From Escherichia coli (GTDB taxonomy: Bacteria > Pseudomonadota > Gammaproteobacteria > Enterobacterales > Enterobacteriaceae), in NCBI RefSeq assembly GCF_003334355.1, contig NZ_QOWP01000062.1: a stretch of 7,912 bases of DNA; one strand, 5' to 3'. The notes beneath the pieces were generated by a model. That model did not search any database. It was given only the letters and a program-made list of their open reading frames with translations, and was not told the DNA's origin. The position numbers and the translations under genes are program-made. This document shows, in pieces, positions 5,867 through 7,912 of this stretch; positions within the stretch are counted from its first letter, which is position 1; each line of letters starts with the position of its first letter.

Positions 5867-7507
5867 TCACACCGTAGCGAAACTAACTGGTTCACCCGCT
5901 CCGCGAGGTTCTGCCGACACAGAATGTTTGTGCAGACGGAATACATCCACCGCCTCAGTTAATCGTGCCGCCTGTTCTTCAAGGGACACCGCCGCCGCTG
6001 AGGCCTCTTCTACCAGAGAAGCATTCTGTTGCGTCACCTTATCCATTTCAGAAATCGCCTGGCTAACCTGCGTTATGCCTCTACTTTGTTCATCCGAGGC
6101 GGCGGCGATTTCCTGCATGATATGTGTGACACTCGCGACGGCATCAACAATAGTGCTCATGGTTTTCCCGGCCGTTGCCACCTCATCCGACCCCAGGTCA
6201 ATTAACCTGACTGATTCACTGATCAAGCCTTCAATCTCTTTCGCCGCCTGAGCGCTGCGACTTGCGAGTGTCCGTACTTCGCTGGCGACAACGGCAAATC
6301 CACGCCCTTGCTCACCCGCTCGCGCGGCTTCAACGGCAGCATTCAGTGCCAGAATATTCGTCTGGAAAGCAATACTGTTGATGACGGCGGTGATCTCAGA
6401 AATTTTCTTCGAACTCGTGGAGATAGCGCCCATCGTTTTTACTACACCGGAAACCGTCTGCCCGCCATCGCTGGCTTTAATAGAAGCCTCTTGCGCCAGT
6501 TTGCTGGCATGATGCGCGTTATCCGCATTCTGTTTCACCGTCGCAGTGAGTTGCTCCATGCTGGCGGCAGTTTGTTCGATAGCCGCCGCTTATTCTTCGG
6601 TGCGAGATGACAGGTCCGCATTGCCAGCTGAAATTTCGCTGGTGCCACGATAAATCTCTTCCGCGCCCTGTCGAACAGTCCCTACTGTCATCCCCAGTGA
6701 ATGCTGCATTTGCTGTAAATGACGACTTAAGCGACCGATTTCATTACGACCCGCCGGTTCATCATTCATCGTCAGATCGCCACTGGCGATTTTTTCAATC
6801 CGTTGTGCGGCATGTTGCAGTGGACGAATGACGATCCGACGTAGCACCATAAATGTTATCAGCGTCATGACCAGGGCAAGCACAAACGCGCCAATCATGA
6901 ACATCCCACCCAGGCGGGTGCGCTGATGGGCCAGTTCCGCCAGTTGGTTGGCTCTGGTGCTACGTATCTTAACGGCTTTGTTCAAAATATCGGTATAAGC
7001 ATTATCCAGCGGTCGGATCTGCTCACTTTCATGATTGATAATCGCTTCAAACATGCCATTTTTGGCATATTTCAACATAGGTTGCATACCCGTGATATAA
7101 GCCTGAAAGCGTTGATTTAATTCAGTGTCGAGGGCTTCATCAGCAGGTGTTTTCACCGGTCGATTCTGATAAGCACGATAACCTTGCTGCGACTGTTTAA
7201 TCTCCGATTCGGCTTGCGCAATATTTCGCTTCATTGCTTCCATTTCCGCAATACGACTCGCAGCCCCGGCCTGAATCATATTGATCCGGGCTGAACGCAA
7301 AAAATCTGAACTGTTCGCTAACCCGGTCCGAATCTCAATCTCCGCAGTAACATCACGCTGATCGCGATCGGCCTGCCAGAGGAAATAGCCAGCCAGAGCA
7401 GAACTTAATGCGAATAGAACTAAGATACCGCCAAGAATGCAGGCAAATAACGGAACCAGCCTGATGTGATGCAAAAAACCTAATCGATGTGAGGGAGTTG
7501 TATTCAT
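5867..7507 (-). pseudogene. trg: Methyl-accepting chemotaxis protein III (ribose/galactose chemoreceptor) with an in-frame premature TAA at codon 306
   Basis: Track ORFs 6590..7507 (305 aa, MNTTPSHRLGF...) and 5867..6559 (230 aa) are in the same frame. The first ends SSRTEE-TAA (plus 6590-6592); the 10 intervening codons read [10 protein letters not shown], then [15 protein letters not shown]... continues into the conserved signalling domain. 305 + 1 + 10 + 230 = 546 codons, the full length I recall for Trg. Confidence 0.8.
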
Positions 7508-7546
7508 TACCGTTGTCTCTCGTCCAGGTTTACTCCTGATAGAAAG

Positions 7547-7573
7547 TCATCGGCACTTGACGGTAATTACTTA
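7547..7573 (-). promoter_or_regulatory. Candidate sigma28 (FliA) promoter for trg
   Basis: Minus-strand GCCGATGA (plus 7547-7554) matches the sigma28 -10 consensus GCCGATAA at 7/8 and lies about 40 nt upstream of the trg ATG. An 11-nt spacer separates it from TAAGTAAT (plus 7566-7573), a 4/8 match to TAAAGTTT. trg is a known flagellar class 3 gene. Confidence 0.4.
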
Positions 7574-7724
7574 TGACCAAAAACCTCTTTGCGTCACATT
7601 TTTACAACAATTATTGCAAAGAAAATTAATGCTATTGGAATGAAGAGAGTAACGAATGGCTAAACTGGCTAACCCGAATGACGAAAAATTCTGGAAAACA
7701 GCACGCAATTTCGTGAAGTGATTA

Positions 7725-7753
7725 TTTTCGTCCCTAAGGAAACCTCATAGGAT
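7725..7753 (+). promoter_or_regulatory. Possible promoter for the hok-type toxin mRNA (hokB/mokB transcript)
   Basis: TTTTCG-17 nt-TAGGAT (weak) placed just upstream of a sequence (from about 7758: GGGUGCCUGAGACUUUCUGUUUUCAGGC) that resembles, from memory, the 5' end of plasmid R1 hok mRNA. That 5' region forms an 8-bp hairpin (7764-7771/7780-7787). Confidence 0.25.
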
Positions 7754-7799
7754 GCCTGCGGGTGCCTGAGACTTTCTGTTTTCAGGCTAACCGGGAATC

Positions 7800-7853
7800 A
7801 GAAAGACGAAGGCCCCGACCGATATTTCTATCAACTGTACTGCACCCATTTTG
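7800..7853 (-). ncRNA. sokB: Putative Sok-type antisense RNA (sokB-like); ends approximate
   Basis: Transcript predicted from the strong minus-strand promoter at 7861-7889. It is antisense to the toxin mRNA leader just upstream of the putative mokB start. The complementary plus-strand leader (CAGAAAGACGAAGGCCCCG) resembles the R1 hok leader I recall. The 3' end is not defined by a clear terminator. Confidence 0.4.
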
Positions 7854-7860
7854 TTGGACG

Positions 7861-7889
7861 ATGAAATGGAATAGCCCCTAATATGTCAA
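7861..7889 (-). promoter_or_regulatory. Near-consensus sigma70 promoter on the minus strand (antisense/Sok promoter)
   Basis: Minus strand reads TTGACA (plus 7884-7889), a 17-nt spacer, then TTTCAT (plus 7861-7866). The -35 is a perfect consensus, the spacing is optimal and the -10 is 4/6. The -35 overlaps the plus-strand ATG at 7883. Confidence 0.5.
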
Positions 7890-7912
7890 AGCCAAAATAC
7901 CCTTTTGAAAAG
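7883..7912 (+). CDS. mokB: 5' end of putative mokB-like reading frame (hok/sok family modulator ORF), truncated by the window edge
   Basis: ATG at 7883 opens MSKPKYPFEK..., which runs off the window. It starts like R1 Mok (MSSPHQ..., from memory) and sits where the antisense promoter overlaps. No Shine-Dalgarno is visible. The Hok toxin ORF would lie beyond 7912. Confidence 0.3.
   Translation, partial: MSKPKYPFEK

Follow-up and report, generated by a model that had tools for sequence, protein, structure and literature searches.

The closest described counterparts of the open reading frame (ORF) considered here are the intergenic small ORFs (smORFs) of bacteria that give start-site footprints but lack a coding signature. 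Fesenko et al. (PMC11188072) and Stringer et al. (bioRxiv 10.1101/2021.07.02.450978) regard such ORFs as mostly spurious or as the result of pervasive translation. The ORF shares with them a low start signal, near-neutral evolution and a range of one lineage, which are all the features (weak initiation, neutral evolution, one lineage) of a pervasively translated intergenic smORF. It is in fact already listed in the class that Fesenko et al. call “Intergenic”, and nothing sets it apart from the other members of that class.

Other systems resemble it in part. YncP (b4774), a protein of 22 residues encoded antisense to hokB about 400 bp away, belongs to the same toxin locus and is of similar length. 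However, YncP is annotated in RefSeq for MG1655 and in most of the other genomes examined, whereas the ORF is annotated in none of them and no NCBIfam model matches its peptide. Like mokB, the ORF is short, lies on the hokB strand and could matter more through its translation than through its product. However, mokB is contained in the hok mRNA, where it overlaps hokB. The end of the ORF is 39 nt before the leader begins, and the ORF is thus not on the canonical hok transcript. Attenuator leader peptides (e.g. thrL, also of 21 codons) have a similar length and also lie upstream of a gene on the same strand. Unlike them, the ORF is not followed by a terminator or antiterminator, has no regulatory run of codons, and conserves neither its start nor its peptide. 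The main text of the Weaver et al. preprint mentions none of yncP, hokB and trg.

Added here to the published listing are two observations: the edge of the hokB cassette falls within the ORF, and the start of the ORF was gained in Escherichia and lost again in some E. coli.

The trg–hokB spacer and its open reading frame

The window, by which we mean the whole stretch of E. coli DNA that was analysed (7,912 nt), contains trg (minus strand, start at 7507), then a 252-nt spacer, the hokB toxin–antitoxin locus (plus strand) and, from 7836, IS150. The ORF lies in the spacer, between the trg start and the first base of the hok mRNA leader. The features of the region are collected in Table 1. The MG1655 copy of the ORF is identical at 66/66 nt (NC_000913.3 1492256-1492321, minus strand).

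Table 1. Features of the trg–hokB spacer and its surroundings, in window coordinates. Variable columns were counted in an alignment of 15 sequences.
Feature	Position	Strand	Remarks
Short ORF LVISNYRQVPMTFYQE, across the trg promoter	7533-7581	-	BL21 Ribo-RET, 59 reads
Sigma-28-like trg promoter, TAAGTAAT-N11-GCCGATGA	7547..7573	-	Putative, read from the sequence
AGAGAG, weak Shine-Dalgarno-like motif	7644..7649	+	6 nt before the ATG at 7656
Bin: SD-like motif, start, first codons	7648-7667		17/20 columns variable
21-codon ORF, ATG to TGA, MAKLANPNDEKFWKTARNFVK	7656..7721	+	From the ORF listing with translation; judged fortuitous
Imperfect 9-nt direct repeat, GGCTAAACT / GGCTAACCC	7658..7675	+	Within codons 1-7; one unit deleted in some E. 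coli lineages
Bin: through codon 10	7668-7687		16/20 columns variable
Conserved block crossing the ORF stop codon	7686..7727	+	About -74 to -33 from the presumed hokB mRNA start; low column variability
Bin: codons 11-17	7688-7707		5/20 columns variable
Bin: last codons, stop, 6 nt past the stop	7708-7727		3/20 columns variable
TAGGAT, candidate -10-like hexamer	7748..7753	+	6 nt before the start of the hok leader; read from the sequence
hokB mRNA leader, 5' part	7760..7835	+	Partly complementary to sokB; truncated by IS150; Rfam RF01794 match starts at 7760, 72 bits
Short ORF LIEISVGAFVFLIPG, antisense to the hokB leader	7790-7835	-	BL21 Ribo-RET, 13 reads
IS150, left end	7836..7912	+	13 nt upstream of the mokB ATG; IS3-like IS150 transposase ORF starts at 7883

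The first-pass annotation of this DNA had described an ATG preceded at about 6 nt by a purine-rich AGAGAG, and the gap is indeed 6 nt. It had also described the peptide as hydrophilic and basic. This agrees with its composition: MAKLANPNDEKFWKTARNFVK has four Lys and one Arg against one Asp and one Glu, giving a net charge of +3, and is without a hydrophobic stretch. The ORF was correctly said to be unannotated. No RefSeq annotation covers it in MG1655, BE2-5 or BL21(DE3), and under the matches listed there is no PGAP annotation over it among the 5105 genomes with a match. The exact peptide is present in NCBI nr as “putative uncharacterized protein”, in a few automated annotations, and a full-text literature search for it returned no mention. 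The description of the ORF as lying between the divergent trg and toxin promoters needs more qualification. It does lie between the trg start and the hok leader, but its last ~7 codons and stop overlap the left end of the hokB cassette. It does not belong to the hok mRNA or to the antisense Sok RNA, since the ORF ends at 7721 and the leader starts at 7760.

The start of hokB transcription is presumably at about 7760, as judged from the Rfam model RF01794 and from a likeness to the 5' end of the hok mRNA of plasmid R1. In spite of its name, “sok antitoxin”, RF01794 matches the hok mRNA strand, from the first base of the leader up to the hok ATG. In the intact locus of MG1655 (L002, 2067-2218) the match begins at the equivalent base, extends as far as the hokB ATG and scores 110 bits. 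In the window the match at 7760-7912 passes the gathering score, though its 3' half is IS150 sequence. The TAGGAT hexamer is invariant in all 15 Escherichia sequences. It failed to pass the sigma-70 consensus scan, for want of a good -35.

IS150 sits in the hokB leader, inside the annotated sokB, so that the toxin frame is cut off from its promoter and from the initial 76 nt of the leader. Many genomes share this insertion, for example BE2-5, with hokB following the IS; BL21(DE3) has no IS150 at this locus. The insertion probably inactivates both the hokB toxin and the antitoxin RNA.

On the other side of the spacer, the putative trg promoter was compared with the sigma-28 consensus, TAAAGTTT-N11-GCCGATAA. 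In the window, trg codon 306 is changed from Gln to stop (CAA to TAA, 6590-6592, minus strand), leaving two ORFs, one of 305 and one of 230 codons. The codon is CAA in MG1655 and BE2-5, and a full-length trg is annotated in BL21(DE3). A change of trg Gln7 to His at 7487 is private to the window. The stretch 6300-7912 is matched at 100% identity by no complete genome of the collection, the best match being 99.9%. A TTG-start ORF of 45 codons (7571-7708, minus strand) runs antisense to the reported ORF and is annotated nowhere.

The ORF has both a start codon and a ribosome-binding site, though these are no better than expected by chance. The duplex of AGAGAG with the 3' end of 16S rRNA has an energy of -4.5 kcal/mol, which is within the top 11% of the 758 ATG, GTG and TTG codons of the window. 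Frames of 21 codons or more begin at 16 ATG codons of the window that have an equal or better Shine-Dalgarno (SD) sequence, and seven of these frames are 21-50 codons long. The corresponding number of ATG codons in Markov-1 random sequences matched in size and composition is 18.1 ± 4.4, and 22% of random 329-nt sequences with the composition of the spacer contain at least one such ORF. The occurrence of an ORF with an SD sequence here is not beyond chance expectation.

A scan of 7400-7912 on both strands found no sigma-70-like promoter by consensus and no intrinsic terminator. By eye, the best upstream -35-like hexamers are TTTACA (7601-7606) and TTGCAA (7614-7619), neither of which has a usable -10 at 16-18 nt. 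Local folding predicts only weak RNA folds around the ORF.

Variation within and beyond E. coli

The spacer was compared in ten further E. coli genomes taken across the identity range, together with MG1655 and BL21, and 11 haplotypes were counted. S65EC (a deletion) and FDAARGOS_1249 (an IS5 insertion) were excluded from the counts because most of the homologous stretch is missing. In S65EC-type strains the missing DNA comprises the 5' part of trg and all that follows up to about 7644. FDAARGOS_1249 has IS5 at about 7640 in place of the ORF and the hokB side. In the collection, 321 of 5426 genomes have no match at all to 7600-7760.

The great majority of E. coli genomes have the ORF intact, with either 21 or 18 codons, and the window allele of 7640-7724, comprising the SD sequence and the ORF, is identical in 2419 genomes. 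The only indel seen in the ORF is an in-frame deletion of 9 nt, in EC1, MY504 and LR28. Slippage on the 9-nt direct repeat accounts for the deletion being in frame, and no selection is needed to explain it.

The 11 haplotypes differ at several residues (Ala2 to Ile or Val, Leu4 to Arg, Asn6 to Lys, Glu10 to Lys, and Lys21 to Arg) and show one synonymous change (Val20). S65EC, which is outside the counted haplotypes, has two more non-synonymous changes. In MY504 and LR28 the start codon is ACG and no other in-frame start is available. Of 5426 complete genomes, 234 carry exactly this ACG allele.

Values of pN/pS were obtained from Nei-Gojobori counts summed over all pairs, with trg codons 1-169 from the same sequences as the control. 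For the 11 E. coli haplotypes, sampled out of 5105 matching genomes, pN/pS is 0.83 for the ORF, a value based on the few substitutions available in 63 nt, compared to 0.04 for trg. When four other Escherichia lineages are added, the values are 0.98 and 0.12 respectively. In this full set of 15 sequences, the variable sites at the first, second and third codon positions number 9/12/8 in the ORF and 28/19/89 in trg. The pattern of synonymous and non-synonymous change had been suggested at the outset as a check on coding. With pN/pS of 0.83-0.98 and no excess of changes at third positions, it goes against coding, and no purifying selection on the MAKLANPNDEKFWKTARNFVK peptide is found.

Another suggested check was conservation of the ORF and its frame across the Enterobacteriaceae. 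One genome per species was scanned with the periplasmic domain of Trg, which gave 80 trg loci. Only four of these have homology to the spacer or hokB beside trg: Escherichia sp. E1V33, E. whittamii, and E69 and SCPM-O-B-8794, the last two being divergent lineages labelled E. coli. In the other 76 (Citrobacter, Enterobacter, Lelliottia, Kluyvera, Kosakonia and others) neither homologous upstream DNA nor an adjacent hokB is present, with the exception of one weak 97-nt match beside the trg start in Citrobacter sedlakii. A comparison of the MAKLANPNDEKFWKTARNFVK peptide with these 76 loci gave no significant match.

Even within Escherichia the start is not conserved. In the four other lineages the codon at 7656-7658 is GTC, GTA, ATA or AAA, and the last G of AGAGAG is C or T. 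The first in-frame start in E1V33 and E. whittamii opens only a 7-codon remnant, and the starts in E69 and SCPM-O-B-8794 are elsewhere and unrelated to the ATG at 7656. Related species share neither the start nor the frame. Because the outgroups have GTC, GTA, ATA or AAA and some E. coli have ACG, the ATG looks as if it was gained on the E. coli stem and then lost in some E. coli. These results, together with the numbers expected by chance, bear out the judgement of the first-pass annotation that the ORF is most likely a product of chance.

The distribution of variation along the ORF is uneven. Variable columns were tallied in 20-nt bins over the 15 sequences (11 E. coli haplotypes and four Escherichia lineages; Table 1). 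Nowhere in the spacer is variation higher than in 7648-7687, where the SD-like motif, the start and codons 1-10 lie. Conservation begins at about codon 11 and continues without interruption past the stop codon.

Two tandem hokB cassettes adjoin trg in E. whittamii (L014, 1470-2340) and in the divergent “E. coli” E69 (L015, 1458-2330). In both of these, homology between the second hokB copy and the window begins only at about 7700 and extends to the right, which puts the left edge of the cassette near codon 15 of the ORF. The ORF is thus a join of two pieces of DNA with different histories, one from the spacer and one from the hokB cassette. The conserved block at 7686-7727 is probably promoter-upstream DNA of hokB. 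A role of the conserved 3' half as the sokB terminator was also considered and rejected: the annotated sokB is at about 7802 and rightwards (coordinates converted from the MG1655 alignment).

Published start-site footprints

Table S4 of Fesenko et al. (PMC11188072) gives a smORFer reanalysis of retapamulin and Onc112 start-site datasets. In the part of the table that covers this locus, the ORF is listed for BL21 (NC_012971.2 1446320-1446383, minus strand, cluster Escherichia_152590). The BL21 Ribo-RET counts are 20 for the translation initiation site (TIS) and 8 for ribosome-protected fragments (RPF), with footprints covering 95% of the ORF. The “Intergenic” class to which it is assigned lies outside the set with a signature of purifying selection. 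The cluster has a size of 1570, with dN 0.12, dS 0.17 and dN/dS 0.69, and our pN/pS agrees with this published ratio.

In the same part of the table, no row for MG1655 is found for either retapamulin or Onc112, and MAKLANPNDEKFWKTARNFVK occurs once, for BL21. Because the peptide is present only once and the MG1655 rows precede the BL21 rows, we take the ORF as not called in MG1655, within the part of the table concerned.

The strength of the BL21 signal can be judged from its surroundings. Rows of the “Intergenic” class in this part of the table mostly have 5-60 TIS reads, and the 20 reads of the ORF are about the median of the nearby rows. For annotated small proteins elsewhere in the file, read numbers in the hundreds to thousands are common. 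Two further short ORFs of the spacer, LVISNYRQVPMTFYQE and LIEISVGAFVFLIPG, are called “potentially translated” from BL21 Ribo-RET in these rows. Both look like junk, and their 59- and 13-read calls therefore indicate the background level of such calls here.

Origin of the open frame and alternative explanations

Very probably, in our view, the ORF is no gene but an open frame that arose fortuitously in the trg–hokB spacer, with at most background translation. Codons 1 to ~14 are fast-evolving spacer DNA on the trg side. The last ~7 codons and the stop are the left end of the hokB cassette, kept as the probable -60 to -33 region of the hokB promoter and not for coding. The ATG most likely arose by a point mutation on the E. 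coli stem lineage, with later loss to ACG in some E. coli. For the BL21 footprints, we infer that ribosomes initiate at background level (“pervasive” initiation) on a transcript that is either a rare read-through or spurious, with no product under selection. Counted against a chance ORF are its intactness in most E. coli, the 2419 identical genomes, the in-frame indel and the footprint call in one strain.

The same points could be turned in favour of a genuine, very young small protein specific to E. coli, with low or condition-limited translation. Such a protein would have an ATG with a weak SD at the correct spacing, 21 or 18 codons kept in most E. coli with a deletion that preserves the frame, and, in the BL21 row of PMC11188072, a retapamulin start signal with nearly complete footprint coverage. 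The nearby 22-residue yncP shows that tiny genes do exist in this locus. We nevertheless regard this as improbable. The pN/pS is about 1 without codon-position bias, the start has been lost without replacement in 234 genomes, and no promoter was found in the scan of 7400-7912. The direct repeat suffices for the in-frame deletion. The footprint signal in this part of the published table is about the median of nearby rows with no coding signature and has no MG1655 counterpart there. It should be said that a very young gene, or a function arising from the act of translation alone, would leave little selective signature. Another reading is a regulatory upstream ORF, in which a transcript from upstream of 7640 runs into hokB, and translation, not the peptide, alters the folding of the leader or occludes the hokB promoter. 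The ORF is on the same strand directly upstream of hokB, with its stop close to the leader. The hok family is already controlled by a translated overlapping ORF, mok (MG1655 annotation), and hokB transcription is condition-dependent, responding to ObgE and (p)ppGpp (PMC11951105). However, there is no promoter-like site upstream and no terminator or attenuator hairpin after the ORF. The start and N-terminal half vary even within Escherichia, whereas the hokB leader is nearly invariant, and hokB is intact both in the ACG strains and in those second cassettes from which the 5' part of the ORF is absent. We regard this reading as highly improbable.

A role of the DNA alone is compatible with a fortuitous ORF and forms part of our preferred explanation. 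Here the conserved 3' half would be the hokB promoter, an UP element or a regulator site, and the reading frame would be irrelevant. The conservation crosses the stop codon, at -74 to -33 relative to the start of the leader, and from about 7700 the sequence travels with the duplicated cassettes. On the other side, neither a recognisable -35 hexamer nor any known binding motif was identified, and the hokB start is presumed from the Rfam model and the likeness to R1. On balance we think such a role reasonably likely. A further idea combines several of these elements, in that the ORF would be a proto-gene at birth: an ATG made on the E. coli stem at the junction of spacer and cassette would be weakly translated in some strains, and the peptide, or translation through -60 to -40 on a rare upstream transcript, would modulate hokB. 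This we hold to be highly improbable, and nothing was found that favours either a young microprotein or a translation-dependent effect on hokB.

Biologically the ORF is of little importance, and its main value is as a worked negative. Although it combines an ATG and a plausible SD with a well-studied location and a published footprint call, it fails every evolutionary test of coding, and the hokB cassette beside it accounts for its partial conservation. Should it prove real, a microprotein or translation event specific to E. coli would sit on the promoter of a persistence toxin, which would be of moderate interest for the fields of toxin–antitoxin systems and de novo genes.
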